Positions 8 to 55,982 are shown, counted from the first letter of the stretch. The stretch: 64,000 bases of DNA from an uncultured Planctomycetia bacterium (GCA_964431835.1 CAYSKO010000008.1:26622-90621); one strand, 5' to 3'. Numbers and translations: made by a program. Notes: generated from the letters alone by a model not told the origin.

Positions 8-3000
8 ATGATCTCTTATCACGTGGAGAGGGGAATTCAGCCGCTCGCCGTCGTCGAGCCGCTCGCCGTGGACAACTACCTACGCGGGTTCGGCTATCGC
101 CTCGCCGACCTCGCGGCGACCCAAAAGATCGGCCTGTCGGGTGGCCGCATCGTTGTAGCTCCGGACGCCGCCGTGCCGCTCACCGAAGATGGGGACGTCG
201 AATACGACACCGCGGACATTCCTCCGCTCACCCCGCGCAACTTGAGCGCGTGGCTTCCGAAGAAGGACGCGTACGTGAAGGACGCAGCGCGGGCACAGGC
301 GATCATCGACGCCATCGCGCGCGCCGACGGAGGGGACGTCTCCCTCGTTGACTCCGGAGCGACCTGGGACACCTTCGAATTGAAATCGCAGCCCGATCTT
401 GTTTTCAAAATAACGAAACTTTCGCCCGGCTTGACCGATTCCCGTTTTTTCTTCGAGGCTCAAGCGGCTGAAATGGGACGTCTGGCCAAAGGAGAAAAAG
501 CACTCACCAAGCAAATTGGAGGATTCGACCTTCTCTCCATCCCGGGTTTCGCGCCGTTCGTTTACGCGGAAGGTTTTTCCAGCGAAGCCGACAGGCCGGT
601 GGGACTCCTTATCCAACAGAAAGGTTCTTACGCTGCGGACCGTGAACTCGACCGCGCACGTACCGCGGCCGAAAGCTCGGGCGTCCAGGGCGGCCCGCTG
701 CGGGCGTCCGACGTCAAATTGGTCGGCGGCCGCGCGGTGGTGGCCGACTTCGACCGCGTGATTTATTCCGGCGCACGTATGTCGGACGCGGCGCAGCGCG
801 TGGAGATTCGCACGTTCGCGGCCGGTTATCTGGAAGGCCGCCCGGACGCCGAGGTCATGCGGAAGCTCGTCGACGCGTACCTGGCTTTCGAGAATCCGCG
901 CAGGGACGCGATCTACAATATCAGCATTGCGTATTACGACGGGATCAATCGCATCCCGGCCGACGCGGAAACGAAAGCGCAGTTCGAGGCGCTCCTGGCG
1001 ATTCTCGAGACCGACGTGAAGCCGCGCGCCGAGGCGGTCAAATATAAGGAACGCCGAATCAACTTTATCGCCAATACGCTGGGGCCCCTTTTCACCGCCT
1101 TCGACGGGCGAGAAGCCACCGCTCCCGAGGCTGCTCCTCAGAAAGCTATTGAAACTCTCGATAAGGAGTTCCGTGCGGGCATCGCCGACTGGCTCACATC
1201 GAACGGCGCTCCGTTCGATGTCGACGTCGCCCGGTGGAACGCGGCCTCGGCGACGGCTGATCCTTCGCTCGCTCCCGAAATCCGCGAAGAGCTCGCCGAT
1301 CTCAAGCTTGCGAAAGACGTCCTGGCGGCCAAAACGGCGGAAGGCGATCCGCGGGAGACCTTCTCCGCTGCGCTTCGTTTCGCGCGGGTCGCTCAAGGCG
1401 CCTATCAGACACTCCTCGGAAAAGCGGGCCGGCGCGGACTTGTCGCGGACACCGCGCGTTACGGCGGCACCGGCGAACTCTTCGGGATTCTGCGGCTGGA
1501 TTTCGGCGGCGACGAAATCCGCCGTCTCGCCGTGCAGCATTCCGACGCGGCCGCTCCGGACGCGATGCGCGTCCTCATACTTTCGGAGATACTCGATACC
1601 CTCGAAACGCTCGACCCCCAAGCGATCGCCGACGACCTCGGTCTGACGGGGGGGCTGAACGTATCCGCATTCCTGAGTGACAAACGCGGCGCGGGAGACG
1701 CTTTATACCGGGCCTACACCGCCCTCGTGACTCTCGGGAAGGACGACGCCGGGCGACCGTTCACGTTCGGAGACATGTCTCCCGAAGCCAAAACCTTCGT
1801 CCGTCAGAGTTTCGGCCGCCATTTCCGCGCGGCGCTCGAGGAATCGGTTCTCGGCAAAAAAGGCGCCATCGGTCAGGAGGGTCTGGCAAGGATCGCGGTG
1901 ATCGACGTGCCGAGGCGTGCCCGTCTCGAAGCGGTCTCGGCCGGTGCGCGCATGGCGGACTCGATCGATTGGGTCGGCCCGTTCCCAGCGTCCGTAAAAC
2001 CCGAGAAACGCGACGCGGTCGCCGCGGCGCTCGTCGACATCGCCAACGGTGCCGACGTGACCGATTTCCGGTTCCTCGCGCACGCGCTGCGTGAGATCGG
2101 CCTCGATCTTCTTTCGGCCGACGCCGCCGCCATCGAGCCGGACGATATCTACGAAACCTTCCGAACCATCCTCGCACGCGCCGCCGCGGGCAAGCTGGGC
2201 GCCGGGACGATGTCGAACGCGCGCAACTACATCCATCATTTCGACGCGATCGCCCCCGCGCTCGCGCGCCTTGCGTATGAGCTTTGGACGGATACAGATC
2301 AGGGCGCCGTCGGGGGTCTTAAAGGCGGCTTGATCGGATCGATCCTCCGGGCGAAGCCCGACACGACGTTTTCGGACGTCGGAACCCTGCCCAAAATGAA
2401 CCAGCTCGATACGGGCAACTTGGATTCTCCGCTCCTGCCTTTCCGCGCGTTGAACGTGCTCGCCGCCGATTCGTCGGTGCAGACGATGTTCGCCGTTAAC
2501 GAAAGCTTCGAGCGGGCGCTTGTGGACGTGCTGACACGTCTCGCCGGTCTCGACGCGGAAAGGCTGACCGAAGCCACCTTTAGGGATCGCTTCGCCGAAG
2601 AAGCGGCCCGTCCGATCGCGGAGCTTGACGGACGCACGTTCAACACGATCTACGCGGAGACGCTCGTCGAACTGGACGAGCGGGCCCGCCGGATGCTCGA
2701 GCAACCCGTCAGTCTCGATTTCGCCTTTCCGTTCGAGGCCGACGCGCCGCTGGCCGCCAACATCGACCGGGTGATCAACGAGCGCTACGGGAATTTCGCG
2801 CAGACGAAGCTTCACAAGCGCTACATCATGAGCCAACTCGACGCACTCGGCGAGAGGGAAGTATCCGCACCGAAGACGGCCGAGCGTCCTTATGGACCCG
2901 CCGCGGACCTCGTGCTCGAATCGCTCGAGAAATACTGGAGGGAAATGGGCCGCCTGTATTCCCGAGAATTGCCGGGCTGGGGCGCGCTCCGCGAGATCCC

Positions 3001-6000
3001 GCTCCGGGACGCACTGCCCTTCATCATCCTTTCCGGGGAACTGCGGCCGAAGTCGTCCGACGGGATCGTCTCGCATGAGCTCGTCCGGATGTTCGGTCTG
3101 GAGCGGGAATCCGCCACGTTCGTCCGCTACGCGCGCGCGCGGGCGGCCGCGGGCGCCGAGCCGCCCGCGGATTTTCTATCCGGCCGCGCTCTCGCGGGCC
3201 TTGCGTCCGGAGCGCGCATGGCGATCACGTTCAAGGGAGTGGAAACCGGCGGCGTGCTCGATAAGGAAGGCCGGGCCATCTTCGAGAGCGTGCTCGCACG
3301 CGCGGTCTACCTGACCGGCTGGGACAATTTCGAGCTCTTCTCACGGACGCTCGACCGGATGTTCGACGCCGAGGGCCGGCCGCTCCTCAGTCTCGACGAG
3401 ATCAAGAACGCTTCCGACGACTTCCTCATCGAAAAACTGCGCGAGGGAATCGCCGGCCAAATCGACGATTATGGAGCCTACGCGCGTTCGAGCCAGCTTT
3501 TTCAGTTCGAAGGGGACTCGAATCGCTTCATTAATCCGTACGTCGGATCCGAAGCGCTCGCGATCCTGCGCGCTTTGACGTCCCTCGCGTCTTATTCGGA
3601 TTCGGCCGGCCGCTCGCCGAGAACGCCGGCGGAGATCGCGGCGGTGCTGGAAGCGCTGCGCATCGGCAGGGTCGAGGAAGGACTCAAGACGATCAAGGAC
3701 GACGCCTCGTACCGCGCCCGCGTGCGCGTCCTCGATCCGACCCTCGTCTACGCAGGGTTCATCAAAGCCGGCGGCTTCGGAGACGTCGTGAAAGTATACA
3801 AGAACGGGAAACCCCACGCGCTCAAGCTTCCTGGCGGAGCGTACATGACGGGACTGTACACCGAGGCCGATCGCCGGAACGCCGCGACGGGCATCCAAGA
3901 GACGGTCGCGTTCGCCGAGACCATCATGAAGGGGGGCGAGAAGACGGCGGAGCTTCGCAAGTTCCTGCCGGTTCTCGTCGAAGCGTTCGGAGCCGACTGG
4001 AAAGAGGGCGATACGAAGGACCCAGCGATCCTCATGGAATTCATCGACTTCGACGCGATTCCCGAAGCCGAAAAATGGATTTTTGGGGGCGCGACGCCAC
4101 AGGAGCGGCTCGATCGCCTCCGGCAGACGGCCGAAAAGTTCAGGGAGCTCCAGAGTCTGATGATCGCGAGCACGGGACAGTACATCTTCGACGACCGAAT
4201 CAGCAACTTCAACGTGGAAGTCGAAAAAGACCCCTCGGGACGTGAAGCGATCAAGCGGCTCATCCTGCTCGATTTCGGTCTCACGCGACCCTATGTCGCG
4301 CCCGAGCAGGCTACCGATGACAACCTCGCGACCACCCTCCCGATCAATCCTTTTTCCAAAACCAGCCTGATGGCGCGCGCCAGCCGCGTGCGGCGGGCCG
4401 TGCCAGAAGGGGTGTTGAGCGCAGACCAGGCGGCAGAAAAATTGAGCCAGACGGACCCTGTGCTTCTGGAATCGCTCGGCGATTTCGAGCTTTTCCCCCA
4501 GAACGAACGCGCGACGCTTGTCAAAAACGCCGATTGGACGCCGGTGATCGCGGCCGAGTGGCTCAGCCGGGAGATCGAGCTCCTGCAGTTTTTCCCGACC
4601 GAGCGCTTCGAGCACGACCTCGGGGAGATGATCTCCTCCAAGGCGGAGAATGCGATCAAATACCTTCTTACTCTGCGCCCCGCGAAGGACGGAAACGGAA
4701 AGAACAAGCGGGCTTCGGTCACGCTGCGAGAACTGGATCTGCGGATCGATGCCGTGGACGGCAAACAGGTGATCTACGCTAAGGGGCTCGAGATCGGAAG
4801 CTTGTCCGACACCGCTTACGTCCCGAACGTGGCGAACCTCGTCGCGGCGCTGGGGTCGCTCGACAACAAGCCTGCTGGAGCGCGGATGGCGGACGAGGAT
4901 TTTTCAGGAAAGGTGAAAAACGCTTTTACGTCCGCGCGACAGGCGCTCTCTTCGGAGGGGCATCTCGATGCGCAGGCGGCGGAAATTCTCGATTTCCTCG
5001 AGAGCCGGTACGCGGGCGAAGATTTCAAGGCCGCACGAGCGGCTCAGGCACGGCTGTCCGATTTGGTTTCTGCGGAGCAAGGGACGGGGCGCCGCGACGC
5101 TCTGAAAGCAGCACTCGGCTTGGTCGCGCCTATACTGGGACTCTTCGCTACGGACATCAGCGCCCGTATTGCTCGGCGCAAGAAGGAATATGCGGCCGCG
5201 CTCGACGTGAGCGCTCTACCGGCCGCGGATTTCTCGGCCTACAGTTTCACGGGAAAGACGGAAGAAAGCGCCTATCGGTTCTTCGTAGCGACCCCCGTAT
5301 CCGGAGGTCCCATCGACATTCTTAAGATCGGGGAGGTGCGCCGCGAGGCGATCTTTCTCGACCGGGTGCGCCGAGAGTTTCCCTCCGTGGCGCCGTTCAT
5401 CCCCGTATTCAAGGGCTATGGAGTGCTCACCGACGTCGACGCGATGCGGCTCGGGGATCCCACTATGAAAGGTCGCCCGTACATGATTACCAGCCGCGCG
5501 GAGGGAAAACGATTCGAGCTGACCTTATTCGAATTGAGCAAAGGAAGCATCGGGGAGGACGAGGCGCTCGGCGCTCATCTGGCCGCCGCGCGGGCGATCG
5601 CCCGGCTCCATGCCGCCGGAATTGCCCATCGAGACCTGAAGGACAGGGAAGTTTTTGTAAATCCGGTCACGGGCAGGGCGACGATCGTGGATTTCGGCAT
5701 CTCGGCGATCTTAGGGGACGCGACCCGCGGCGAAGAGGACCTGGTGAAGGGGGAGCTGCATCAGATAGGAACCAGCGTGAGCGGGCGAGGAAAAGGTTCG
5801 TTGAACCGGGACGTGCGCGCGCTCGTGAGCTTGCTGGAACAGATCGTCTTCGCCGCGAACCAGTCTGCCGGTCGAGACGGGCGCGAGTCGCTTATCCGGA
5901 GACTAGCTCTCGAAGAATTCGGTCTGCAGGCCAAAAAAGCGTTGGTGTTAGCGCAGGAAAACGACGCCGCGCCGGCATACGGCATCGGCGAATTACTGGC

Positions 6001-9457: not shown

Positions 9458-9507
9458 CCGATTTTCATAACCCTATCATTTTAAATGGGATACGGAACTC
9501 TTTTCCT

Positions 9508-9536
9508 TTGATCCACTCGCCCTCCTAGTGTATACT
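9508..9536 (+). promoter_or_regulatory. Sigma70-like promoter for giant gene B: TTGATC-N17-TATACT.
   Basis: TTGATC at 9508-9513, a 17-nt spacer, then TATACT at 9531-9536. It sits in a ~125-nt AT-rich island (9458-9582) within an otherwise ~65% GC region. A second TATAAT lies at 9543-9548. Confidence 0.5.
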
Positions 9537-9582
9537 TTTACTTATAATCGCTTAAAATAATGTTATCAGAGTTAATAAAATT

Positions 9583-21500: not shown

Positions 21501-24500
21501 CGCGTCCATCGACGAGGAACTGGGCAGCGCCTCGGTCAAACAGTCGTACGTCATGACGCTTAAGAACGGCGACCGCCGCGCGATCAAGTACGTTCGCCCG
21601 CTCGCGGAGTTCGAGATGGTCGAAAATCTGGCGATCATGCGCAACGCCATCCAGCGGCTCAGGTTCCGGATTCCCGCCCTGAAAGAGCGTGTATCCGACT
21701 CGCTGCTCGACGAGATCGAGAAGTCTGTCCAACGCGAGCTTGACATCCGTCAGGAAGTCTTGAGCCAGCGCGAGCTCGGCCGTTTCTCGAGAGGGGAGCG
21801 TCACGGCGGGTGGACGCTCAAAGTCCCCCGCGTCGACGGCCGTTTCGTCGGTTCGCGGTACTTCGCGGACGAATACGTGGTCGGCGAAGCTCCGAAAGCC
21901 GCGTTCATCGCCGCCGCCGGCGAAAAGACGGCCGCCGCGTTCGCCGGCCTTACGCTCAAGACGGTGGTCAAGCAGGCGCTCCTCTTTGGCAAATACCACG
22001 GCGACCTGAACCGCGGCAATCTCAAGTTTGACGTTCCGGGCACCACCGCGCACCTCATCGACTTCGGCAACACGGCGACGCTTTCCAGGGCGAATCAGGA
22101 CGCCTTCGTGCTGCTTATGGACGCTCTGGCGGCTTCCCACGCACCGGACGCGCTGGCCGCGCTGAGGCGTCTGGCGCCCGCGGGATTGTCTCCCGCGCTC
22201 GAGGCGAAAATCGGCGCTGTGGCGGTGCTGGCCGACGTTCCGGCGGGCGCGAAGATCCAACGCGTGAAAGCCGTGATTGAAGGAGAGGGCGGAAAACTCG
22301 AACCGCAGATCGACTATTTCCTTAAAGTTCTCGAGACGCTTTCTTACCTCACGGGAAACGTCTCCAAAGACCAGATCGCCGAAATCTTCGCGGCGGCGGT
22401 CGTTCGCCGCCAGCTTTCCGTCCGGAACCTGTTCACCCCGACGACCTGGAAGTTCATCTCGCGCCGCCTTTTCGGTTCGTCCGCTCCGGTTCCCGCTCCG
22501 GGCGCGCCCCTGGCTGCCGAGGGTACGGCGGAAATTCCGTCCGTGGCGGCGATTCCGGAGAGCCCGAAGGCACCGGCCTCGAGCGAGCGCGGCGATTCAC
22601 CGGTCGGGGCGCGCATGGCCGAAGCGAAATCCGCCGCCCTCACTCCCGAGGGAGAAGCGCTCAAGCTTCTTGCGCTGTACCGCATCGGCGAGGGGTCTGG
22701 CGACTCCAAGGACGCGAACCGGTTCGCTTTTTCACCCGGAGGATCCCGCCTCCTTCACCGGGATAGGGGCCGCGTCTCGGTGATCGATCCCGCGACCGGA
22801 AAAACGGTTTCGATCGAGCTTCCGGGCGGCTACGAGTGGGCTTCGTTCCGCGGCGAGAACGTGCTCTACGTGTCCTTTCAGGACAAAACCGAACGCGTGT
22901 ATGCGCTTCGGGGGAACGAGATCGTGCAGACCATCGAGGATGAAGACGAACCCGTTTTATCGGCGGGAGGCCTGTTGAGCGTCGGCGGGGGCCGGTCTCT
23001 CTCGTTCTCCGACGACGGAAGTCTCATCTTGGTGGTGTCGGACACCGGTTACTCCGTCCGTCTATCTTCTACGGGGGAGACGCTGGCGATTCCCGACGCG
23101 CGAAAACCCAAGAAGGTGGAGCTGTCGGGAAATTACGTCGTCGTGAGCTTCGACGGCGGCCGCCATGCGATTTACCTCGTCGCGGAAAACAAGTTGTCGG
23201 TCGCTCTCACCGACGATGTCCTCGGAGTCCCTTCCATTGAAAGAGGCTACGCGTACGCCGTTCCTGCCGACGGAAGGGCCCGTGTCTGGGAGTTGGTGAC
23301 CGGCCGCCGTGCACTCGATTTGGAAGGAAGAATCAATCAGGTTAAAATTCTCGACGGGCGGTGGGCGGTCACTGTCGGAGCCAACGACGATACGGCGAAG
23401 CCGGGCTCGCTCGAGATGCAGCTTTACGACCTTCGGACGGGCGAGAATTTCGGAAGGAAGATCGCGCCGGAGGCCCGCGATTTCGCAGTCGACGGGAACG
23501 GCAGGTACGTCGACGTCTTCCTCGAAAACGAAAGGCGCCTGTTCGACTCCGAGACGGGAGCGGATCTAAGCCCCGTCGTTCGCCCCGGATACGACGAACT
23601 CTCTATCCGTGGGAACCGCGCGCTCGTTAAATACGGGCCGGCCGCCCGGATGAACGCGTTCGACGGACGGTACGAGACTTTGTACCGCCTGATCGATCTC
23701 GAAACGGGCAAGGAAATAACGGTCGAAGGGCTCGAAGCGGCGCAGCGGGCAACTCTCGCGCCCGACGGCTCTGCGCTCATTTTTAGAAATGCCGCGTCGG
23801 ACTCGATTCTTGCCGACGTGTCGGGAAAGACGGTCGACCGTTTCGGCACGGCGGGCCGCAAGCTTTACTCGGCGGGTTTCCTGCCGTCGGGCGTCGTCGA
23901 AACGAAAGACCAGAACAACAGGTCCCATCTTTTCGATCTGAAGACGGGCAATTCGCTCGATTCTCTGACGGGGCCGCAGGCGACGCAGCCCGTCGTGTCG
24001 TCCGACGGAAAGCGCGTCGTGGTCATGGATTCCAGCCGGTATTTCCGCCTGGTGGACATCGAGACGATGCGCCGGAATCCCGTTCTCGCTCCGCACGCGG
24101 CCAGGTGGGGCCGGAGCGCCCACTTCGCGCTCGAAATCCTCGCACAGCTGAAACGCGAAGGCCGCTTGGACACCGCCGCCGATCTCGAACGCCTCTTGCC
24201 GCGCGTGACCGAAGCGATCGAGCGTTACGAGGCGGCGGTCACGGATTACAACCGCGACCGCGTCGTGGGTCTTTTCCTGGACGGCAACAGCGTGCTCAGT
24301 GCACCGGTCCTCGAACGCGTGACGGCGAGCGGCGGCGACTCACTCGAATTTTTCCTTTTCTGCATCGAGCTCATGGAATCCGATCGCCGCCTAGCTTTCC
24401 AGATCTTAGACGGCGTCTTCACGGCGGCCAAGAGCGAGGGGCTCGCTTTCGAGGAGAATTCCGCAGTCACCGCGAAGCTCCCCAACGACGAGCGCGAGCG

Positions 24501-27500
24501 GATCCGGCGTTTCGTGGCGCTTACACGCAATTTCAACCCCGAGCTTTACCGCTATTTCCTTGCGACGAGCGAAGCCAAGCTGAAAGAGCTTCTTTTGTTC
24601 TCCGAAAAGATCCTTTCCGACGAAGCGGGAATGCCCGAGATCGAGGCTTTTCTGGCTCGAGCGGCGGGCGAGAAGGACTCCAAAGGACGGCCGTTCGACG
24701 GCGAGCAGCTCCTCTATGCCGTGGTCCAGCGGGCGATCCCGCCTTCCGGCGCTTCGTTTGTCCGGCAGACCGAAGCGCTCGGACTCATGAAAAAATACCT
24801 CGAAGCGGCTCGCGAACGCGACCCACGCGGAGACGTTCCGACCTCGCTCAAAGCCCTCGGAAGGTTCGGCGGCGGCGAAGTGCGGCGCATGGTCTGGCGC
24901 CGCCGCGCGGACGCGGGCGACACCTGGAGCCCTGAAGTGGCGGCTCTGATCGACGCGCTCCGGTATCCCGACGCCGCGCGTCCGACGGACGAGCTTAAGG
25001 CCGTCGTCGCCTCCGACCGCGCGCGCCTTTCCGCCGCGCTCACGGATTTGCTCAAGGATTTCGATAACGACGCCAAGCGGGACGAGGCGCTCGCGGCGTT
25101 CCTTGCGCACGCTGCCCACAGCGACGCGCTGAAAGAGAAGGTCGACCGGATCCAGACAGGAGAACGTGCCGGGCTTCGCGCCCTCGACGAGCTCTTTTTC
25201 GACAAGGACAATCTTGCGATCCTCCTCAACGAAATCCTCGCTGATTTCAATCTCGAAGGGGAAGGAGCCGTCCGCGATGGCAAGCGGCTCGCCCGGTCGT
25301 TGGGCTCGATTTGGGCCCTCCCGCTGGGCGAAGGCGCCCGGCGTGCGCGGCTCGGGATCGCGCTCGCTCCCGTGCGAAACGACGAGGTCCGGTCGAAGAT
25401 TCTCTCTGCTCTGCCGGACGTCCCCGGACTGCGCGCGGAAGTCGAAAAACTGCTCGACTCTCGCGTGAAGCTGCCGGGCGGTCTGATCGACCGTCTCTTC
25501 GAGAAACCGCGGGCGGCGATCTCCCTGGAGTCCGAGCGCTACGTCGAGATCCCTTCGGACAAAGCGGTCCGTGTTCGTTTCCAGGTCGTGAAGGGGCCCT
25601 TGTACGGGATGTGGGGCTTGAACGCGGGCGTTTGCATCGCGGCCGACGTCGCTCTCTGGAAGAGGCCGGAATTCTTCCTCCTGGCGATGATCGACGAGGA
25701 AACCGGCAGCGCGGTCGGGTTCACTCATCTTTTTACCAAGGATTTCGAGGTGGATGGAAAGACGAGCCGCCACCTGACGGTTCCCGGCATCAATCCGAGC
25801 ACGGAAATCCTCTCCGAAGTCCGCGCCTCGGAGCTTTACCCCATGGTCGAGGGGGCGCTCCGAACCGTCGCCGCTGCGGAGGGATACGACCAGATCGATC
25901 TACCGACGGACAAGAACGTGCTTTCGAACCGCAGCGACATCGTCGATCAGGCGGTCCGCAGCGGTTACGACAAAGACGACCTGCCTGAGGAGGTGGGTTG
26001 GAACTCCGTGCCGCAGCCTTACCCCTTCAAGAACGTTTTTGTGATTCCCAAGGGCGCGCGCATGTCCGGAGAGGCCCTTTCGCCCGAAGCCCGTACGGCC
26101 GCTCTCGCTTCGCGGCTCGAGACCGCCTTCCGATCGCTCGGCGAGAGCGCTCCCACCGGCGTGCGTCCCGACACCTTCGCGTTCTTCCGCAGCGCGCGTC
26201 CGACCGCGTTCGACGCTTTCGCCCGCCGTGTGGTGGAGAGTGACGACGCCCTCCTGGACCTGCGTTCGCCCGCCGTCGTGAGGATGGTTTTCCCCGTGAA
26301 AGGACGCGACAGCGTCGTTGTCCGCGTCGGCCGCGAAGGCCTCGATTTCCAGCAAGGCTCCGTTTACAAGATGCTTCCGATCGAGACCGGCGGCGCGACG
26401 AGGATCCCGTTGTCCGGCGTCCGGGCGCGCGACCCCGACGGAACCGTAAAACCGCTCTTCGATTTCCTTGCGGACTTCGGGGTTCCCGCCGAGACCGTCG
26501 CGAAAGCCCGGCTCCAGAGCCTTTCGTTCGAACACGGTTACCACCTCGAAATCGCGGCGGACGGTTCCCTCTCTCTTCCGGACCGCACGACCGGAGACGT
26601 CCAGCGCGCGCAGCTGCGCTTCGACCGGGACGGCGATCTCGTCAGCCGCCATTTCGAGGTCCCCCAGACGCCATCGTCCGAGATCCGGAACGGCCGGATC
26701 GTGTCCCTGGCGGGACACACGCACGGCATCACCGGCGACGACTTCATCTCCGAATTCACGAGCATCGACGTGGGCGTCACGTCCGTGAACGTGGTCAAAT
26801 TGCTCGATGCGCGGAAGCCTGGAGATCCCGCGGCTCTCACGCTCGCCGAGTTCCTGATCACGGAGCGCGTCGTCGGTGAGTTCGAATTCCGCGCGCTGGT
26901 CGTCGAGGTGGAGCCCGATCCGTCCGACCCGAGCGTACCCGCGACCGTGCGCCGGTTCGCGCTTAAGCACGACGCGGCGACCGGCTGGGCGATCGAAACG
27001 ACCGACGACGGCGAGCCGCTCGATTTCAACACCACCGTCGCCGAGCTGCGGGAGGACGTCGAGACGGGCGCCCGCATGGCCGACGAGCGGAAGGCCGAGC
27101 TCGATTATTTCTTCGAGGAGAACTTCATCACCTCCGGCGCCGTCGCCGACGGGAGCATCTTCGACAAGACGCCGATGGAGGTCGTGCACCGCTCGTTCGC
27201 GGAGATCGAAAAGCTCCGCCCGCTCCGGGACGCGCATTACCTGTCGATCGGCGCGGGCGACCTGCGCGACGCGTTCACGGCCGCGTACGTCCACGGAATG
27301 CGCGTGACGGCGATCGAAAAGGACCCGCGCGTGGCCGCCGGAAGCCGCGAGATTCTCGGATTCCCCGACGCCGCGAAGTTTCATGAAGACCGTTTCGAGT
27401 TCAAGGAAGGGGACGCGCTCGCCGAGTCGTGGAGCGACAAGGACGTCGTCTCGTTCTTCTACACGGAGCCGCCGAGTCTCGCGGAAGCGGCCGCTTTCCG

Positions 27501-29487
27501 CGCCCGCCTCGCCGAAAAAGCGAAAGAACTGCCCCCCGGCGCCGTGTTCGCGCTTCTTTTCACCGGCAAATACTTCGACGTCGAGCTCGGCCTGGATTAC
27601 GTCGCGACAATTCCGTTCGTCGCGCCGCGCTACGGCCGCAGCGAATTGCGTCTCTACGCGGCGCCGGCCGCCGGCGCCCGGATCGCAGACGATCCGTTCG
27701 CTACCGAGTTACTCGCGCTTTCCGCGGGAGAGGGCTGGGAAGCCGGGGCCGCCCGCGCGGACCTCGCCGCCCGCGATTCCGGGCCGACAGCGTCCCTCGA
27801 CCCGGCCGGCGCGCGCCTGACGACGCCCCAGGAAGCGCTCGCCTTCGCGGCGGCGGCTCTTGCGGTTGCGGGCGATCCGAAAAAACTTCCTGCGGGGACC
27901 ACTTTCCACAACGCCATGGGACAGTCCGTCTCTCCGAGGACGGTTTCGCCCTTCGAATACATTTCGGGATTCGCGGGTACCGCCCGGACTCCGCGGAGCG
28001 GGGAGCCTTCCGACGTCTTCGTTCTCGGCGAATTCGGCTACCTGACCGTGGACACCGCCGCGCATCCGGGCGCGACCGTGACTTCCTATAACTACCGCAT
28101 GTGCATCGGCGTCGCTGTCCAGGCCGTCGACGCGAACGGCCGCGTTCACGTGGGCGTGTACCACCGCCTGCCGCGTCCGAAACTCGACGAAGCCGTCCTC
28201 GACGTCTTCCGGTTTTACTCGGACAAAGGCTTCCACGACGTGAAGATGACGGTGCTGTACGCGAACGATTGGCAGGATTACGGCGCGGTCCCCCAAAAGG
28301 ACGTCGCCAAGGCGCTCGGTAAAGAGCTCGCGGCCCGGAACGGTGGCGTGCCCGTCTCGCTGCGCCTGGAAACGCATTCGCATTGGGACGTCGCGGTGCT
28401 CGCGGCGACGGCCGAAGGCGCCGCCGTCGTGACTCCCGCCACCGGCGTGCGTTACGCGCCCTGGGGGACGTCGGCCGCGCGGCTGGCCACGGCCGAGGAG
28501 CCCGCGGAATCCCTGCTCGCGCCGGCGAACGCCTCTTATCCGCGCCTCGACGCGGACGAAACGCGCGTGCGGACGGCCGCTGGGGCACTGGCGGCTCTCG
28601 TGTCGCGCATCCCGTTCGGCCGGAACGCTTTCGCCATGGACGTTGACGGAGTCGCCGCGACGGCGCGGCGCGAAGGGGAGACGGTCGTTTTTTCCTCCGC
28701 CTCGGGAGCACGGCTGGCCGCCGTCCCGATCGAGCGCGAGTCCGCCAAAGCCGCCGCCGCGGTCAAATCCATCCCCGACTACCTCAGGGAATTCGACGGC
28801 GCCACAACCCGCGTCGAAGAAGCCATGCTTCTCGCCTTCGGAGCCGAAGGCTTGGAGACCTTGACGGCCGAGCCCCGCTCGATCGCCATCGACATCGGCG
28901 TCCTTCCGGCGAAGCGTCCCGAGTACTTAGAGAACCTCTTCGTCCAGCTTCTTGCGATGCGCGCGCGTCCCGTGGCCGCCAACGTCTCGTTCCGCCTGAC
29001 GGGCCCCGGCGTCCAGGAAGCGCTCGCTTCGTCCGACTTGGCACGCCAGCTCGTACGGAAGGGAATTATCGACCAGACGCCCGATCCCAAGCTTAAGACC
29101 GCCGAGATCGCAGGTATAAACCGCATCGAATCCCTCTCAGGTGAGACCTACCTGCCTTTCCGGGCGGTCGAGATCACGGACAAGGAAGCGGGAGTACCGA
29201 AGTGGCAGGCGATGATCCTTCTTGCCGTCATGGCCTCCGAGATCGGGAAGAAGACCGAAGACCCCGTTCTCCTCAGGCAGTTCTACGAGGCTTACCGCGA
29301 CGTCTCGGGCCTTTCGGTCGAGAAGCTAGAGCCTGCGAAGCTCCTAGAAGCTTTAAAGGCGTTCCTCACGGGTACGGCATCCAAATCCTTGGCCGAGGAC
29401 TACGCGATGCGCGCCGCCCCCATCGACATCAACCGTATCATCCAGCTCTTCAGCAACATCAAGCGCATTGTGGCGTCGGCCGCTTGA
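9583..29487 (+). CDS. Giant multidomain secreted protein B (6634 aa, ~720 kDa) with a signal peptide. Modules include TraB/TIKI-like, degenerate GGDEF-like, APH-like kinase, PI3/4K- or HipA-like kinase, JAMM/JAB, M48-like HExxH peptidase, UbiB/ABC1-like kinase, beta-propeller and SAM-MTase-like, plus the shared C-terminal module.
   Basis: ATG at 9583 to TGA at 29485-29487, one 19.9-kb frame with high GC3. N-terminus MTPSGKRILRPIALLLALIFAFEEAAKA/AP is Sec-signal-like. HGDL at 13681-13692 with DFG at 13777-13785. DAKMKHLLLVND...FVGIDSE at ~15310-15405. JAMM HNHPSG-x-PS-xx-D at 16180-16221. HEAGH at 17923-17937. UbiB motif VGVKFGQQVLG at ~21367-21430 with HGDLNRGN at 21997-22020 and DFG at 22060-22068. 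MTase motif I LSIGAGDL at ~27238-27270. Nine G-A-R-[MIL]-A/S motifs. Confidence 0.85.
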   Translation: MTPSGKRILRPIALLLALIFAFEEAAKAAPISAPPTLDAQAALCADPSSLIVPFESAVLKEIHRGTNGRFVIHIQDAHSNLSGQRNLAAALDSILSSHGVRLVLSEGGADDCSLTPFKKAASKEVWKKVAKTLLVQGQISGEEYLNLTTDRPMKIVGVEDIALYLKSVEHYASLADGREQLLSHLREVRASITRMKARLYPSDIMEYEAAKRAGGSQEADFKALVALASARGESLQDFPEIRRLAATVAREAEIDFELANLEQAALAERLSRAGRPESLRESLEDAAHAGTEKVSQHLRVRALIRSAEEAKVPKADYENLSRYAAYLSDFSEVDLDGVLDELAKAEDRVYYAALPSEDARLLRALDRYATLLETAYSIRMSTKDFAQFRASEADFATIRWQAFLNRRLADAGDFGGMIPQTDLLDRGRRSLEEFYASVTERDFAFVRNLEKTMADEGEKAAVLITGGYHTPHLKKLLREKGYSFAVLTPVVLAETSQQKYESRLLAPLRGRGARTVETVSGQGTAGGSLADLGGEFSRPGKNDGVRAMLLRALASSDESPLNFSQDDLETIRAIRATMQNTFRSVLEAAVVDSLRARNAGLSLEEARPRAKGVVEAIFRELDAPRPAPKAAPARALDSAPRTAEAPYTTAAARMSSEVRAAERAAEFWAENERQKAGAFDLVRGQDKAWVGYSDMMKLGLRDRHYGKLAADYFIIDAISIAQRSLASSGVFAYRLGSGDDVVSMAFPESFDGDRVETALADVQVALETEYRSMAFAVLPPGLPTAALDALSEDESVRTVDFRPYYSNGTADGRPHPQILFKLAEGETHRQGLDRLLAAATLAPGTGDVLEVRAPLLPAAAVRLQAPELRTAQPEKSIEASLKAGELRQSALREMGALVGTEETVAAPQRAKENPLYGDTVNAGVESALAEIRARMNADTDPALPVEREYATYERVALFRILGEARKDRSGTPKLKTVRGPPDNFFFVSSDGKGGWQILLVRESVVALEHDGTLENAFLKNRRESGREGDYERKFGFKQVNDVFGHFAGNQLLKLGSLNLQNSFSEASASSGGLMGLEDVFRATFEAMSRVNEVVAEKGFKIEYDASTALTSAEFPADVESPAILLVLEKLAAARRSVTVESRPEFPGVAIRVYGTENKSTWSQIEEELAEVAAYRAHRAGLELERAHAQIREPRASVAAKNSVPAGARLSIQEVFGEDAPDVLEFVAGTRDLDAVLELLMGEPRRAGDRITTGYAVTLRTQAGPVQRLFFVKKLKSDSSLMRRFQTDEHELAQEAEIATRASRIGHSPSTRFFRFRSGTPGLVTTAAGGESIYRMFVRSEPSDPVRLVLEAAAEALADLHFRAGITHGDLVHPGLEDDLRADHIFWRRDADRIAVEFIDFGLANDKATDGQKAEELRKVVHAVSEYIPRRPDRAALVRAFSEAYEARREGIRNETAGARMALPWSPKSGTGILRFDLERRLPADLPVVRVTDKGLERPAFAGTSAETLLENPALATLLRAEGYEYLTGPQLRSRSFLEGLAAQTAREDLRLYLNQRLVYGVPRAVYARRHSPAVNAAARRVTAQLFRSVVRVHPQSAQMLVPVVADLLSRVPENQLESFLEETPFADTHEKALPFGVVRLVPFLVEWSRTLSEVSAAARGDAIPVQPLLSAGLLMDAGKLGPETVAYALERVRAKWINLGRPVNTTALFALEYAIEAALDAREPRSAAETEFAALERNFRAIDRQLESEPKWLGFAGLLRTKTIGFEGSEYRLRDAEIVAARGRNPVLVLKYDNPQKGELPILLKWTQVRKAKYDRIATRTASLLGLFSYRAQPLRDHADFLRSEWEVVQYRPHELVAFTASDSNAPARQKFVLNQPSFRRMIAAADAPRSNPLRDLGAHFFLQHLLGVRDAKMKHLLLVNDARLGENNNRFVGIDSELLFHYNEALDHVNFTDDGRRPPLTPARLNDVPRVLQPNGDQREFMRRIGAEADGARYLGRVIEGFKNAHETARSKREEILRLVRENVEPGRYEAIRAEVERRLDAPAEIALEEVGLATEAFLPAFRESGARVAAAADSSEAARNAYASFRENEIARIVREARTFRARLFAAAMRLALRTGSSPLSRAMLWFVPVGTTALLDLGPDLAASIGALDRAGYGRFADEIGLYRLRGTGRWLAIRGGRDYFPVRGDFAYELFDVFIHNHPSGHALPSLGDVAAHYNTETEGTPFALIAAGNEWLSFDARALQTGGYFKADQYTVYDLNEKLGKALRTKLGREGLVDLSDPVSLAASREAMGGLGIAIRSVLPSELSDNVVGAAPEPFALLGSTDPRTRYQALSILDRALPQGLAADIFQAFHTDTDVRVQMYALGILSMRIRNDFQALRRAVQPFRNSPFERVKEQAAYIGGSETESPSGARMAGDDWAERFPENLRPVFSRMSPAGRIRVDREIEAYRLLSGRAWLEMVDEIDAWKRGDGILDFHVNAEAIKKFGVYLYLGRRHTQVSPGDKRDRGVALEFATLTQVDLSPASPPRPAPGTVFSPPDATSKTAFGYVDLREHRPVRAWAVGMSTTAVREMLRENGLDIPVRKWREGKTEPNPEALYHTVSETLWPYVAMTGALLSGMEAQRRQSLETVVIQEAFPGRLSEYLEPEEEAQALAVVQAIVAESYSPTPGRVSGARIATTAQAPKTPEQSRRLEAIARTTGATPDNEIVATVRKLAFDAAKNLGLPSEQYAFVLSDSDEINAFFYTADGERVIQFNWGLVQFLHENGILNQAVIEFILGHEAGHSLDIDHSKRDPAARHLQLASEYSADEHGLTANDRSGRTPLGGLLLMRALRRHGKDGGISITYPQTHRREYKILNDIRHRYWENLTTSPEPIDAEPSSFERSRRYQMDSKMYGRLTFERLEEAVELAETPHDVLRLTHLYEKLLSVETVLRTLADGTVGRGAIKNNRWQSFDDFDLNNMEKRGEGAFVERYLRDNGVSPEDYFNDKQKDAIRQWAAKNGMDFRDALFMALSDLANRSLGEFRYATSKNEGRLQPYSSIQPTSDVGPDGQSTFKEPLEFWRMKQARHRELQPLRAKFEARAKVAFGGSALGEADRDRLVTDFLLGGLRYLDQEPADFTPYSVTKIDPDDGYESQDYVYPKPADAVADLAWDDPLAALQDVFRNYRSYENNYVKTRSSKDPAYKAYASDEYSAVQAMKVHHDKLIEDLLGKIGPETSTERLLELYATFHEYYRLMPYSVGGYSKDKQTEQYGFDILKRLSERLATVEEFVSVVPRLAKLVPNKYDSSELAKTWFSKAQTVDELLGALDTLLSEPRLRGGTLKALAAFEENAVRIASAADWSKTKPALALVEGLTATLERHGLDPKKTERREEWPLAAAKAAASLIRLTQSNRSNEVFHGELVVRYYTRFYDGKSPYGRPGAAIRVDYPQTRFLYSENELLRHLEGVFYDKVKALRFFFGNGLPPTAGLLYDLKAENREEMFGLFLANEEAYLRNGMPQEEFDRLLCIFAWEWFGPGRGSSVERLRAFTARLRRSPVNAEFLRAFDGAGYNVQESKEGDPKFEAAAEIAEKIGHDAVGSYYAYFGGYEEYKDPTKDKRREHGLERRSYAPLWATDGRDPRKTDEIRAGNDLYEAWAFAHMGASIEERIAWLVRFHPEPTPYRNGLLLKLVGDPFTAGPAVFAPVLPHLAPDRITDILNRRVLQARKAAGELSFKTYAEVKAVIDAHFPEDSEIGRELFFGWLQNARITPVELNGLRETGALSRLAGDKKKKVAHEIIERMGDDMERQSVEEKREVYLWLAGLAPKPTLIEYYEFTSKTDLDDLPRLLAAGTEAERYAFLTTLLVGDSGVLSDPVQRADLMKTLFEAGTGEKAEASNTRFAVLEEVFEACPEHKQFDILHGALGHFQESSGTAAVSSEALTKRFLTSFGLVGVKFGQQVLGIEDLSDRVPPLDKRYLLNAILHDGGMELLDDVASIDEELGSASVKQSYVMTLKNGDRRAIKYVRPLAEFEMVENLAIMRNAIQRLRFRIPALKERVSDSLLDEIEKSVQRELDIRQEVLSQRELGRFSRGERHGGWTLKVPRVDGRFVGSRYFADEYVVGEAPKAAFIAAAGEKTAAAFAGLTLKTVVKQALLFGKYHGDLNRGNLKFDVPGTTAHLIDFGNTATLSRANQDAFVLLMDALAASHAPDALAALRRLAPAGLSPALEAKIGAVAVLADVPAGAKIQRVKAVIEGEGGKLEPQIDYFLKVLETLSYLTGNVSKDQIAEIFAAAVVRRQLSVRNLFTPTTWKFISRRLFGSSAPVPAPGAPLAAEGTAEIPSVAAIPESPKAPASSERGDSPVGARMAEAKSAALTPEGEALKLLALYRIGEGSGDSKDANRFAFSPGGSRLLHRDRGRVSVIDPATGKTVSIELPGGYEWASFRGENVLYVSFQDKTERVYALRGNEIVQTIEDEDEPVLSAGGLLSVGGGRSLSFSDDGSLILVVSDTGYSVRLSSTGETLAIPDARKPKKVELSGNYVVVSFDGGRHAIYLVAENKLSVALTDDVLGVPSIERGYAYAVPADGRARVWELVTGRRALDLEGRINQVKILDGRWAVTVGANDDTAKPGSLEMQLYDLRTGENFGRKIAPEARDFAVDGNGRYVDVFLENERRLFDSETGADLSPVVRPGYDELSIRGNRALVKYGPAARMNAFDGRYETLYRLIDLETGKEITVEGLEAAQRATLAPDGSALIFRNAASDSILADVSGKTVDRFGTAGRKLYSAGFLPSGVVETKDQNNRSHLFDLKTGNSLDSLTGPQATQPVVSSDGKRVVVMDSSRYFRLVDIETMRRNPVLAPHAARWGRSAHFALEILAQLKREGRLDTAADLERLLPRVTEAIERYEAAVTDYNRDRVVGLFLDGNSVLSAPVLERVTASGGDSLEFFLFCIELMESDRRLAFQILDGVFTAAKSEGLAFEENSAVTAKLPNDERERIRRFVALTRNFNPELYRYFLATSEAKLKELLLFSEKILSDEAGMPEIEAFLARAAGEKDSKGRPFDGEQLLYAVVQRAIPPSGASFVRQTEALGLMKKYLEAARERDPRGDVPTSLKALGRFGGGEVRRMVWRRRADAGDTWSPEVAALIDALRYPDAARPTDELKAVVASDRARLSAALTDLLKDFDNDAKRDEALAAFLAHAAHSDALKEKVDRIQTGERAGLRALDELFFDKDNLAILLNEILADFNLEGEGAVRDGKRLARSLGSIWALPLGEGARRARLGIALAPVRNDEVRSKILSALPDVPGLRAEVEKLLDSRVKLPGGLIDRLFEKPRAAISLESERYVEIPSDKAVRVRFQVVKGPLYGMWGLNAGVCIAADVALWKRPEFFLLAMIDEETGSAVGFTHLFTKDFEVDGKTSRHLTVPGINPSTEILSEVRASELYPMVEGALRTVAAAEGYDQIDLPTDKNVLSNRSDIVDQAVRSGYDKDDLPEEVGWNSVPQPYPFKNVFVIPKGARMSGEALSPEARTAALASRLETAFRSLGESAPTGVRPDTFAFFRSARPTAFDAFARRVVESDDALLDLRSPAVVRMVFPVKGRDSVVVRVGREGLDFQQGSVYKMLPIETGGATRIPLSGVRARDPDGTVKPLFDFLADFGVPAETVAKARLQSLSFEHGYHLEIAADGSLSLPDRTTGDVQRAQLRFDRDGDLVSRHFEVPQTPSSEIRNGRIVSLAGHTHGITGDDFISEFTSIDVGVTSVNVVKLLDARKPGDPAALTLAEFLITERVVGEFEFRALVVEVEPDPSDPSVPATVRRFALKHDAATGWAIETTDDGEPLDFNTTVAELREDVETGARMADERKAELDYFFEENFITSGAVADGSIFDKTPMEVVHRSFAEIEKLRPLRDAHYLSIGAGDLRDAFTAAYVHGMRVTAIEKDPRVAAGSREILGFPDAAKFHEDRFEFKEGDALAESWSDKDVVSFFYTEPPSLAEAAAFRARLAEKAKELPPGAVFALLFTGKYFDVELGLDYVATIPFVAPRYGRSELRLYAAPAAGARIADDPFATELLALSAGEGWEAGAARADLAARDSGPTASLDPAGARLTTPQEALAFAAAALAVAGDPKKLPAGTTFHNAMGQSVSPRTVSPFEYISGFAGTARTPRSGEPSDVFVLGEFGYLTVDTAAHPGATVTSYNYRMCIGVAVQAVDANGRVHVGVYHRLPRPKLDEAVLDVFRFYSDKGFHDVKMTVLYANDWQDYGAVPQKDVAKALGKELAARNGGVPVSLRLETHSHWDVAVLAATAEGAAVVTPATGVRYAPWGTSAARLATAEEPAESLLAPANASYPRLDADETRVRTAAGALAALVSRIPFGRNAFAMDVDGVAATARREGETVVFSSASGARLAAVPIERESAKAAAAVKSIPDYLREFDGATTRVEEAMLLAFGAEGLETLTAEPRSIAIDIGVLPAKRPEYLENLFVQLLAMRARPVAANVSFRLTGPGVQEALASSDLARQLVRKGIIDQTPDPKLKTAEIAGINRIESLSGETYLPFRAVEITDKEAGVPKWQAMILLAVMASEIGKKTEDPVLLRQFYEAYRDVSGLSVEKLEPAKLLEALKAFLTGTASKSLAEDYAMRAAPIDINRIIQLFSNIKRIVASAA
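28764..29483 (+). repeat. Copy 2 of the 720-bp perfect direct repeat (shared C-terminal module of giant protein B).
   Basis: Identical to 8734-9453 (compared line by line). Confidence 0.9.
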
Positions 29488-32124: not shown

Positions 32125-32222
32125 ACGGAGAGCGAGTCGCTAAAATACCCCTTTTCTCCTCCTGGGCTTCATGTTATAAATTTACGTAAGGAAGTCGTTT
32201 TTTTAAAAAAATGCGAGGGATC

Positions 32223-33245
32223 ATGCCGATAGAGACTCAGCCAAAGAAGAATGCGCGCGCCGCCGTGACCGTGAACCATCACGCGGTGAAAGAGTTCATG
32301 ACGCATAACTACCGGCATTTCAACTCCGCCGTCGTTATCGACGCGTCCCAGGCGTACGTGGATCATCTCAAGGCCGGCAACAAGATGATGGTCACGCTGG
32401 CCGGCGCGATGAGCACGGCCGAGCTCGGCATCTCGCTTGCTCAGATGATCCGCGAGGACAAGGTGCACGCGATCACGTCCACCGGCGCGAACCTCGAAGA
32501 AGACATCTTCAATCTCGTCGCGCACGACCACTACAAGCGCGTCCCGCACTACCGCAACCTCACCGCCGCCGAGGAAGTCGAGCTCCGGAACGGCGGCTGG
32601 AACCGCGTCACCGACACCTGTATCCCCGAAGAAGAGGCTATGCGCCGCATCGAGCGCCAGGTCCTCAAGTTCTGGCAGAAAGCGGATAAGGAAAACCAGC
32701 GCTATTTCCCGTACGAATACATGTACCAGCTCCTGCGCAGCGGCACGATCAACGAGTCGTTCCAGATCGATCCCAAGGATTCGTGGGTCATGGCCGCCTG
32801 CGAGAAGAATATCCCGATCTGGACGCCGGGCTGGGAAGATTCGACTCTCGGAAACATCTTCGTCGCCAACGTCCAGAAGAAGGAAGTCTCGAAATTCTCC
32901 GTCGTGAAGCACGGCGTCGAGCTCATGGACGACCTCATCCACTGGTACAAGAAAAACACATCGTCCAAGTCGGTTGGTTTCTTCCAGATCGGCGGCGGCA
33001 TCGCCGGCGATTTCCCGATCTGCGTCGTGCCGCTCATCGAGCAGGACCTGAAGGAAAAGGTCCGTCTCTGGGGTTACTTCTGCCAGATCTCCGATTCGAC
33101 GACCTCCTACGGGTCGTACAGCGGCGCGGTCCCGAACGAGAAGATCACTTGGGGCAAGCTCGACGGCGACACGCCGCGTTTCGTGATCGAGTCCGACGCC
33201 TCGATCGTGGCGCCGCTCGTCTTCTCTTACGTCCTCGCTTCGTAA
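32223..33245 (+). CDS. Deoxyhypusine synthase-like protein (DHS family).
   Basis: ~341 aa. Motifs HNYRHFNS, LAGAMSTAELG and ITSTGANLEEDI resemble the DHS/homospermidine-synthase fold. ATG 32223 has a GAGGGA SD 4 nt upstream; the alternative ATG 32211 lacks a well-spaced SD. Confidence 0.5.
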   Translation: MPIETQPKKNARAAVTVNHHAVKEFMTHNYRHFNSAVVIDASQAYVDHLKAGNKMMVTLAGAMSTAELGISLAQMIREDKVHAITSTGANLEEDIFNLVAHDHYKRVPHYRNLTAAEEVELRNGGWNRVTDTCIPEEEAMRRIERQVLKFWQKADKENQRYFPYEYMYQLLRSGTINESFQIDPKDSWVMAACEKNIPIWTPGWEDSTLGNIFVANVQKKEVSKFSVVKHGVELMDDLIHWYKKNTSSKSVGFFQIGGGIAGDFPICVVPLIEQDLKEKVRLWGYFCQISDSTTSYGSYSGAVPNEKITWGKLDGDTPRFVIESDASIVAPLVFSYVLAS

Positions 33246-54385: not shown

Positions 54386-54397
54386 CAAGGAGGCGGG

Positions 54398-55977: not shown

Positions 55978-55982
55978 AGCGC

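Follow-up and report, generated by a model that had tools for sequence, protein, structure and literature searches.

Two tandem giant genes from an uncultured Planctomycetia bacterium as probable members of a head-and-tail family of long multi-enzyme proteins

The gene pair and the family defined by its ends

We analyzed a 64,000-nucleotide stretch of DNA from an uncultured Planctomycetia bacterium (GCA_964431835.1 CAYSKO010000008.1:26622-90621; here called the window), in which two giant genes, A and B, lie one behind the other on the same strand. Gene A (8 to 9457, + strand) has 3149 codons followed by TAA, and gene B (9583 to 29487, +) encodes 6634 amino acids (aa) followed by TGA. The window holds just two sense codons upstream of the ATG of A at position 8, and the reading frame is open at the window's edge. 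We found that B matches protein P0083 of a public collection of 15 billion proteins residue for residue (its NCBI source is one contig of 94,443 bp), while A as read from position 8 has no exact entry there. Because the frame is open and A as read is absent from a collection that contains B, the window very probably truncates A on the 5' side, and the gene is probably longer. The length of more than 3149 aa given in an initial annotation of this DNA is thus correct. The spacer between the genes (9458 to 9582, +) is 125 bp long with a guanine-plus-cytosine (GC) content of 32% and contains a near-consensus sigma-70-like promoter site, TTGATC-17-TATACT, at 9508 to 9536.

We found no internal stops in A or B, which together have 9783 codons. 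GC at codon positions 1, 2, and 3 was 0.68, 0.46, and 0.75 to 0.78, uniformly along both genes, and equal to that of five housekeeping genes of the window (those for aconitase, PurH, MnmE, AccA, and TrpE). Since this composition is native and matches the neighbors, A and B look native and coding. No tandem DNA repeats were found in A or B. The sole internal protein repeat is a shared C terminus, and this excludes a reading of the proteins as adhesin-like repeats. The gene boundaries are backed independently: both proteins end in a family tail, and B opens with a family signal peptide and head, all described below. These data suggest that A and B are intact neighboring genes, each transcribed on its own, and the initial description of two giant same-strand genes made of distinct, nonrepeated modules held up. 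We also noted an antisense open reading frame (ORF) of 1299 aa within B (18361 to 22260, −). Its codon-position GC of 0.78/0.42/0.65 is what the shadow of a gene with high GC at the third codon position would show, and we discarded it.

B begins with a Sec-type signal peptide (aa 1 to 29; 9583 to 9669, +), MTPSGKRILRPIALLLALIFAFEEAAKAAP, which has a K/R-containing n-region, a hydrophobic core, and the end ...AKA|AP. The signal peptide had been called initially, and we found that its pattern is conserved family-wide, with the ending ...YAAP. It was present in 13 of the 16 homologue N termini that we examined; the 3 most distant ones are without the AAP ending. There is only one hydrophobic segment in the 6634 aa of B.

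The signal peptide is followed by a head of about 500 aa (B aa 40 to 550; 9700 to 11232, +), which defines the family and includes a helical insertion of about 280 aa. A search with the first 1899 aa of B returned 79 proteins of 1000 to 3300 aa, many of which end at contig ends; the database used apparently yields no proteins longer than about 3300 aa, as neither A nor B found itself. All 79 align to B aa ~40 to 550, with 24 to 52% identity (mostly 32 to 50%) and E values down to 5e-205. The match lies at the homologue's own N terminus, save in a few contig-truncated sequences and in P0082, where it is internal. Several of the 79 are named as proteins of Omnitrophota metagenome-assembled genomes (MAGs). 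Downstream of the head, the Pfam content varies from homologue to homologue and includes methyltransferases, HATPase_c, M48 with ABC1, HEAT, Pkinase, GNAT, NUDIX, HAD, DnaJ, and enzymes of sugar metabolism.

Scanning GTDB species representatives with the head alignment gave 319 head loci, often several in one MAG, with 8 to 10 loci each in two MAGs. Among the best 79 of the 319 loci, 38 are labeled Omnitrophota/Omnitrophica, 37 "uncultured Planctomycetia" (third-party annotation [TPA] MAGs), 3 Eisenbacteria, and 1 a proteobacterium. The best identity of the B head among these loci was 53%; therefore, the source genome itself is not among the representatives scanned. The head is at the ORF start in all 44 GTDB loci that have upstream sequence, and 20 head ORFs run past 3850 aa, which was the limit of the DNA fetched. 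A hidden Markov model (HMM) of the head scores 745 bits on B, and it found no second copy of the head elsewhere in the window. Taken together, these results suggest a large, paralogue-rich family of long proteins, mainly of Omnitrophota-type bacteria, to which A and B probably belong.

Tandem pairs like A and B were seen in 2 of the 44 loci, L068 and L069, and so occur elsewhere without being the rule. In these loci (L068, 2 to 9049; L069, 5096 to 9973), a long same-strand ORF, of at least 3015 aa and of 1625 aa, respectively, ends just upstream of the head gene.

An AlphaFold2 (AF2) model of the head built with 34 homologues was confident (predicted local distance difference test [pLDDT] score, 83). 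It has an alpha/beta fold with a parallel sheet core, as the TIKI/TraB/ChaN/EreA superfamily requires, and seven of its eight top matches belong to the TIKI superfamily (a TraB-family protein, the type III effector HopBA1, the EreA-like Bcr135/136, the MARTX effector RRSP, ChaN, and EreC). In RRSP, the superfamily's set of two His and two Glu residues plus a conserved Arg is E3900, H3902, E3930, R4001, and H4030 (PMC6254334). We found that the head presents D76-x-H78, E106 (+28), R441, and H469 (+28) in the order and with the spacings of E3900-x-H3902, E3930, R4001, and H4030, and that these residues are invariant across 35 to 65 sequences. The full list of invariant head residues is D76, H78, E106, E159, R441, and H469, and the conserved motifs are IHIQDAH, VEGG, GxED, RDxAF, and GGYHTxHL. 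Foldseek of the head returned nothing significant and listed Bcr135, EreC, and ChaN at E > 0.1 only; sequence profiles (Pfam and PDB sequences) gave no link from the head to known families. The head differs from the TIKI superfamily in that its first acid is Asp instead of Glu and in that the helical insertion of ~280 aa splits its fold. It also differs in being the constant N-terminal module of huge proteins and not a stand-alone enzyme or toxin cargo. We consider it well supported, but not proven, that the modeled head is a TIKI/TraB-like hydrolase; the fold and the catalytic residues bear out the TraB/TIKI-like segment that had been proposed for B. The helical insertion (B aa 160 to 460; window, ~10060 to 10960) showed a weak, nonsignificant Foldseek likeness to long helical bundles, namely, those of the AhlB/SmhA tripartite alpha-pore-forming toxins and of chemoreceptors.

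The C-terminal domains of A (aa 2814 to 3149; 8447 to 9454, +) and B (aa 6304 to 6634; 28492 to 29484, +) are common to both proteins. Identity is 78% over their last ~340 aa and rises to 100% over the final 240 aa, and both proteins end in ...IVASAA-COOH. Most complete homologues end in ...A(V/I)G[SA][AS]A-COOH. For a tail profile, we used the C-terminal 260 aa of 39 homologues and excluded A and B. The profile matched A at aa 3031 to 3149 (18 bits; domain E value, 5e-5) and B at aa 6515 to 6634 (17 bits; 1.5e-4), end to end and in register, so that the last ~120 aa of A correspond to the family tail. These scores are modest. Among 500 shuffled controls, the highest overall score was 8.6 bits, and no individual matching stretch exceeded 8 bits. 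In an independent set of 19 head ORFs from the GTDB loci, all complete and with 1500 aa or more, 16 end in [ASTW][AS]A. Tail alignments indicate a domain of ~200 aa. The tail profile had no significant relative among PDB sequences, and a GTDB scan with the alignment of the A and B C termini gave no match. Because A carries the family tail, it almost certainly belongs to the family, with its head located before the start of the window.

At the DNA level, the shared C termini contain an exact 720-bp direct repeat, with copy 1 at 8734 to 9453 (+) and an identical copy 2 at 28764 to 29483 (+). The repeat forms the 3' ends of both genes, its identity ends one base short of the end of the last codon, and the DNA flanks upstream of the two copies are unrelated. 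In other genomes, the tails of paralogues differ from one another. For this reason, the perfect identity of the A and B tails points to recent gene conversion.

Cargo of the two proteins

We ran Pfam on the whole proteins and on tiles of about 1000 aa. Two domains of B had significant domain-level matches, one to M48 peptidases of the BepA/LoiP type and one to UbiB/ABC1 kinases. The M48 zinc metallopeptidase domain, of the BepA-like soluble type (B aa 2680 to 3020; 17620 to 18642, +; HEAGH at aa 2781), scored 36 to 38 bits in Pfam (aa 2714 to 2809) against a cutoff of 20.3. Foldseek matched it to BepA/3c37 with E values of 5e-5 to 7e-5, and an AF2 model of B aa 2101 to 3300 resolved the M48 part alone. 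The ABC1/UbiB atypical kinase domain (B aa 3945 to 4183; 21415 to 22131, +; DFG at aa 4160) scored 72 to 74 bits in Pfam against a cutoff of 22.9, with NCBIfam UbiB at 1.3e-21 and PHROG at 3.4e-14. Its score is far below the NCBIfam equivalog cutoff; thus, it is a domain relative and not UbiB itself. Both domains had been recognized in the initial annotation, which had also raised the possibility that the modules are repetitive structural domains. In contrast to that possibility, the profile searches gave enzyme-type domains (M48 and ABC1), and there are no internal repeats apart from the shared C terminus.

The two domains are parts of one M48-to-ABC1 cassette of ~1600 aa (B aa 2626 to 4300; 17458 to 22482, +), which is collinear, with 27 to 32% identity, in at least 17 other long proteins. 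The collinearity spans B aa ~2650 to 4300, and among the carriers are proteins with 6359, 6110, 5008, and 4792 aa; some carriers also have the head. In contrast to BepA/LoiP and UbiB/ABC1 proteins, B fuses both domain types, with a middle of ~900 aa between them, inside a giant and probably exported protein. An exhaustive HMMER search with B aa 1900 to 3099 against 1.84 billion representatives found just 25 relatives, 20 of which have the M48 module. In one homologue locus (L008), a 959-aa ORF (7150 to 10029) overlaps by 29 nucleotides the start of the gene (10001 to 19555) for the M48-ABC1 homologue P0092 (3184 aa). This ORF pair may represent a single longer gene that a frameshift or sequencing error has divided.

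Upstream of the cassette lies a JAB/JAMM-like module (B aa 2131 to 2403; 15973 to 16791, +), of the form E...HNHPSGHALPSLGD. The motif HNHPSGHALPSLGD at B aa 2200 has the exact E ... H-x-H-x7-S-x2-D spacing. Together with the upstream Glu, it is kept in five distant homologues, and in the six sequences the E, both His residues, and the D are invariant, while the Ser is not. There was no Pfam or PDB profile match to the module, and the AF2 pLDDT there was below 50. Of the JAB/JAMM domain proposed for B, we can therefore retain the motif, and the domain is JAB-like at the motif level.

A conserved module follows the head in B (aa 642 to 1185; 11506 to 13137, +) and is common to P0004/P0109 and L043. 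It lies directly after the head in P0004/P0109 and ~2400 aa downstream of the head in L043. This occurrence at different positions is direct evidence of module shuffling. In L043 (4276 to 15850), the module-like sequence at the shifted place belongs to an ORF that has the head and extends over at least 3858 aa. The module contains a GGDEF-like fragment of 28 residues only (E, 0.05 to 0.18), and there is no GG[DE]EF motif in B; we found no support for the active GGDEF domain suggested earlier.

Further kinase-like cores had been proposed, and profile searches of the tiles recovered them as weak matches. B has a Bud32/RIO-like core (aa 1293 to 1450; 13459 to 13932, +) with HGDL ... IDFG and an NCBIfam arch_bud32 E value of 0.0012. 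The proposal of a PI3/4K- or HipA-like kinase was not borne out, as neither family appeared in any profile search.

The region of B downstream of the cassette contains a WD40/PQQ-like beta-propeller (aa 4380 to 4850; 22720 to 24132, +). The Pfam match to PQQ_2 (aa 4395 to 4621) was subthreshold at 7.7e-4, and PDB sequences gave Ika8 at 1.2e-10, PkwA at 2e-5, and WDR61 at 2e-3, consistent with the propeller noted initially. Next is a module common to P0001, P0002, and P0003 (B aa 4876 to 5501; 24208 to 26085, +), with C5351 invariant in GLNAGVCIAAD. It forms the C-terminal end of these three shorter proteins, one of which is from an Omnitrophota MAG, and its profile had no significant relative among PDB sequences. 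On the contig of that MAG (L002), a 5.4-kb stretch beside P0001 (17127 to 22589) is without gene calls and opens with AT-rich sequence. The last B module before the C-terminal domain is an S-adenosylmethionine (SAM)-methyltransferase-like segment (aa 5875 to 6000; 27205 to 27582, +) with IGAGD ... AIEKD ... TEPP. It matched the PADLOC model mad2 at 6.7e-6 and a PDB RNA methyltransferase at E = 0.17, in line with the SAM-methyltransferase motif described before.

In A, we found a core like that of eukaryotic protein kinases (aa 1823 to 2009; 5474 to 6034, +), with HRDLK at aa 1874 and DFG at aa 1895, as the initial annotation had it. The Pfam Pkinase match (aa 1823 to 1905) scored 30.3 to 32.8 bits, close to the cutoff of 31.7, and covers subdomains V to VII only (profile positions 72 to 151 of 263). 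The core has no Gly-rich loop (GxGxxG), and its catalytic-loop Asn is replaced by Glu. Other libraries gave StkP/PknA (PDB), a kinase at 7.5e-8 (PHROG), and kinase models down to 6.5e-10 (PADLOC). A weak second kinase-like core (A aa 1373 to 1429; 4124 to 4294, +) has D....N followed by LLDFG; the Pfam ABC1 E value of 0.21 on a tile is not significant alone. The HExxH motif that had been noted in A is present as HEFAH (aa 2606 to 2610; 7823 to 7837, +), a possible zincin at the motif level, and gained no profile support. Whole A had no homologue at E ≤ 1e-5 in a word-indexed search, which apparently yields no proteins longer than ~3300 aa.

Export, processing, and competing explanations

We found that cysteine is nearly absent from these proteins. 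A has 0 cysteines in 3149 aa, B has 7 in 6634 (0.11%), and 77 family members have 0.14% over 175,516 residues; in contrast, 15 neighboring genes (29577 to 60584) have 0.90%. The conserved n-h-c signal peptide, the single hydrophobic segment, and the near-zero cysteine content argue that the chains leave the cytoplasm.

The explanation that we favor is as follows. A family member consists of the Sec-type signal peptide ending in ...YAAP, the TIKI/TraB-like head of ~500 aa, which keeps the superfamily's His/acid/Arg catalytic set, and a tail of ~100 to 200 aa ending in ...[AS][AS]A-COOH. Between head and tail sit 0.5 to more than 6 thousand aa of shuffled cargo, which in B comprises the JAB-like domain, the M48-to-UbiB cassette, the kinase-like cores, the WD40 propeller, and the methyltransferase-like domain. 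The whole chain would be exported via Sec, with which the near absence of cysteine fits. The head and tail would be constant handling elements for sorting, docking, and/or processing, and the protease-type domains (TIKI-like, JAB-like, and M48) may cut the polyprotein. The ATP- and SAM-dependent cargo would then be active beyond the cytoplasm of the producing cell, and the most plausible site is the surface or interior of a host or prey cell in contact with it. Omnitrophota have been published as episymbionts or predators with giant surface proteins (10.1101/2023.11.21.568195; 10.64898/2026.06.07.730766), and action on a host or prey cell would fit that lifestyle. The sequences show the integrity of the genes, their family membership, the fold and motifs of the head, the homology of the tails, the identity and shuffling of modules, the cysteine depletion, and the housekeeping surroundings; whole-chain export, proteolytic processing, the roles of head and tail, and the target cell are what we infer from them. 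We give this explanation, an exported family marked by head and tail, a probability of roughly 0.6.

Several points weigh against it. Kinases and methyltransferases would have no obvious cofactor supply outside the cytoplasm, and the inference of export or that of activity could be wrong. No recognizable domain was found in about two-thirds of B and nearly all of A, so that "multi-enzyme" describes a minority of A and B only. Several kinase-like cores are without canonical residues and may be pseudoenzymes. We found no secretion or injection genes in the window or beside two homologues. The N terminus of A lies outside the window, so its membership in the family is read from its tail, and the phylum of the organism is taken from MAG labels and one syntenic block.

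A more specific version of this explanation is that the signal peptide, TIKI-like head, and tail form a new kind of cargo carrier for strings of enzymes, exported and possibly delivered into partner cells by episymbiotic or predatory Omnitrophota. The tail, which may be a handling signal, would be recognized or docked, perhaps by a PDZ-type or other C-terminus-binding partner or by the head; the proteases would release the cargo; and gene conversion would keep the A and B tails compatible with one machinery. We offer this version tentatively and would not bet on it as it stands.

Alternatively, A and B could be cytoplasm-facing, membrane-tethered multi-enzyme scaffolds in which the N-terminal hydrophobic segment is an uncleaved anchor and the modules serve the metabolism or envelope of the producing cell itself, for example, as UbiB-type proteins would in lipid or quinone homeostasis and M48 proteins in quality control. 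The need of ATP- and SAM-dependent domains for cytoplasmic cofactors would be met in this way, and the UbiB and M48 families are normally housekeeping. The setting is also of this kind: A and B have native composition and lie among housekeeping genes, with aconitase as the next gene and DHS, PurH, TrpE, MnmE, AccA, Mla, and similar genes in the 34 kb downstream of B, and the homologues are likewise in housekeeping contexts, as in both of the M48-cassette homologues that we looked up. However, a positive n-region with a short core and an A-x-A-type site, found family-wide, predicts translocation of the C-terminal bulk, and extreme cysteine depletion is atypical of the cytoplasmic enzymes of this genome. 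A tether would also have to be the one hydrophobic segment in 6634 aa. Domains of the TIKI superfamily and M48 domains of the BepA type usually reside outside the cytoplasm. The geometry of the signal peptide and the depletion of cysteine lead us to regard such scaffolds as less likely than export and, overall, as unlikely.

The initial annotation compared the pair to MARTX-type toxins, and a MARTX-like or polymorphic-toxin-like arsenal against eukaryotic or competitor cells would have a secreted carrier whose effectors are released by autoprocessing. By analogy, MARTX toxins resemble A and B in being single secreted polypeptides with several enzymatic modules and with one or more protease domains able to release them. 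The features that define MARTX are absent: we found no glycine-rich repeats or C80 cysteine protease domain in the whole proteins or tiles and no type I secretion genes in the window. Export of A and B is apparently Sec dependent, in contrast to that of MARTX, and their modules are unrelated to known MARTX effectors save for the distant TIKI fold. As for polymorphic toxins, there are no RHS or FHA repeats, the C terminus is the conserved part and not the variable one, and the next gene is that for aconitase and not an immunity gene. The family cargo consists largely of housekeeping-type enzymes and not of known toxins, and no finding indicates a eukaryotic target. The comparison thus survives as an analogy only, and we consider a toxin arsenal improbable.

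An assembly artifact, with a chimeric join across the 720-bp repeat, or a pair of decaying, nonfunctional pseudogenes is much less probable still. An exact repeat ends both genes, and short-read MAG assemblies are error-prone at such repeats. The window's assembly is the only source of the A-to-B junction, and a Joint Genome Institute (JGI) contig takes the other path. This contig (Ga0163149_10003424 of sample 3300020596; L001, 1 to 1045) agrees with the window at 100% identity from position 28764 on, but the DNA preceding its copy of the repeat is the unique sequence of A at 8417 to 8733 and not that of B, so that the A tail is joined through the repeat directly to the aconitase gene. However, the repeat has two left and two right flanks, and the only alternative pairing puts the tail of B onto B's own start. 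Such a pairing needs a circle or a tandem copy; therefore, the window's order is the consistent linear arrangement. For the JGI join, the better reading is an error in the path taken by the assembler or a natural deletion that removed the 20,030 bp separating the two repeat copies. Decay, for its part, is at odds with 9783 stop-free codons of uniform, native codon-position GC, with genes that start or end exactly at family hallmarks, and with the similar-sized homologues that exist elsewhere. Exact-pattern scans of a metagenome collection for the window start (an upstream extension of A) and for the repeat end gave no match; the sample of the known JGI contig is evidently outside that collection.

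Least probable of all is that A and B are polyvalent proteins, the multidomain proteins that phages or conjugative elements send into a recipient together with their DNA and that often combine RadC-like JAB, zincin, methylase, and kinase domains. In favor of this reading, the motif HNHPSG...PS..D corresponds to RadC-like JAB domains and occurs alongside zincin-like, methyltransferase-like, and kinase modules. However, polyvalent proteins are not characterized by Sec signal peptides, the window has no tRNA or Rfam features, the composition of A and B is native, and the flanks are core housekeeping genes without integrase or mobile-element genes. The PHROG matches are to generic kinase models only, and PHROG and PADLOC searches together gave generic kinase and methylase similarity only, for which reason we rejected membership in phage or defense systems.

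Known giant proteins and lineage

Giant multi-enzyme proteins with signal peptides or transmembrane segments have been described in Omnitrophota (West-Roberts et al. 2023, 10.1101/2023.11.21.568195; Nielsen & Lui 2026, 10.64898/2026.06.07.730766). Class 1 of Nielsen and Lui has a "multi-enzyme" architecture, and their catalogue has a threshold of at least 10 thousand aa (10.64898/2026.06.07.730766). The likeness to Omnitrophota giants that had been pointed out for A and B agrees with our results: they probably come from the same or a close lineage, and their sequences are largely unique, with much "dark" sequence and with proteases that possibly process the chain. Like class 1, B has a signal peptide and distinct M48, ABC1, and PQQ_2/WD40 domains without a dominant repeat, and A has Pkinase. 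In contrast to the catalogued giants (thresholds of 10 to 30 thousand aa), B has only 6.6 thousand aa and falls below the length thresholds, as does A with the at least 3.1 thousand aa read here, and both are without transmembrane bundles, dockerins, and C39, S8, or SecA-like domains. In our reading, A and B add two members to the long multi-enzyme proteins already known from Omnitrophota. In one sense, the accompanying statement that the domain combination matches no known family did not stand, given the large Omnitrophota-type family of long proteins and the two preprints.

The family itself is apparently undescribed: Omnitrophota giant multi-enzyme proteins are already known, and the head-plus-tail signature was not in the literature searched. 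A term search of the Nielsen and Lui preprint and full-text literature searches found no mention of this signature, of the M48-to-UbiB cassette, or of the cysteine depletion, and absence there is not proof of novelty. Omnitrophota giant genes have mostly been treated as sequence-unique curiosities. The pair shows that at least one large subset has a fixed architecture (signal peptide, protease-like head, C-terminal tail, near-zero cysteine, and shuffled enzyme cargo) that is searchable, countable per genome, and testable at the bench. If the head and tail are export or processing handles, the function of giant proteins can be tackled as that of a delivery system used by uncultured episymbionts; otherwise, the pair is a well-annotated example of an already recognized phenomenon.

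We found a lineage hint farther downstream in the window. The block at 52880 to 58833 (an MlaF-like ABC ATPase, MlaD, a FecR-domain protein, a porin-like protein, and a CHASE2-SpoIIE phosphatase) has a collinear counterpart in the Omnitrophota MAG GCA_040753015.1 (L002, 1 to 5224), with 27 to 64% identity; the GC content of that MAG is only 36%. This synteny hints at a relationship to Omnitrophota. Closer to B, a deoxyhypusine-synthase-family gene (32211 to 33245; Pfam DS, 1.4e-44) lies in this bacterial genome beside genes for a pseudouridine synthase and a lysine-decarboxylase-like (LOG-type) protein.

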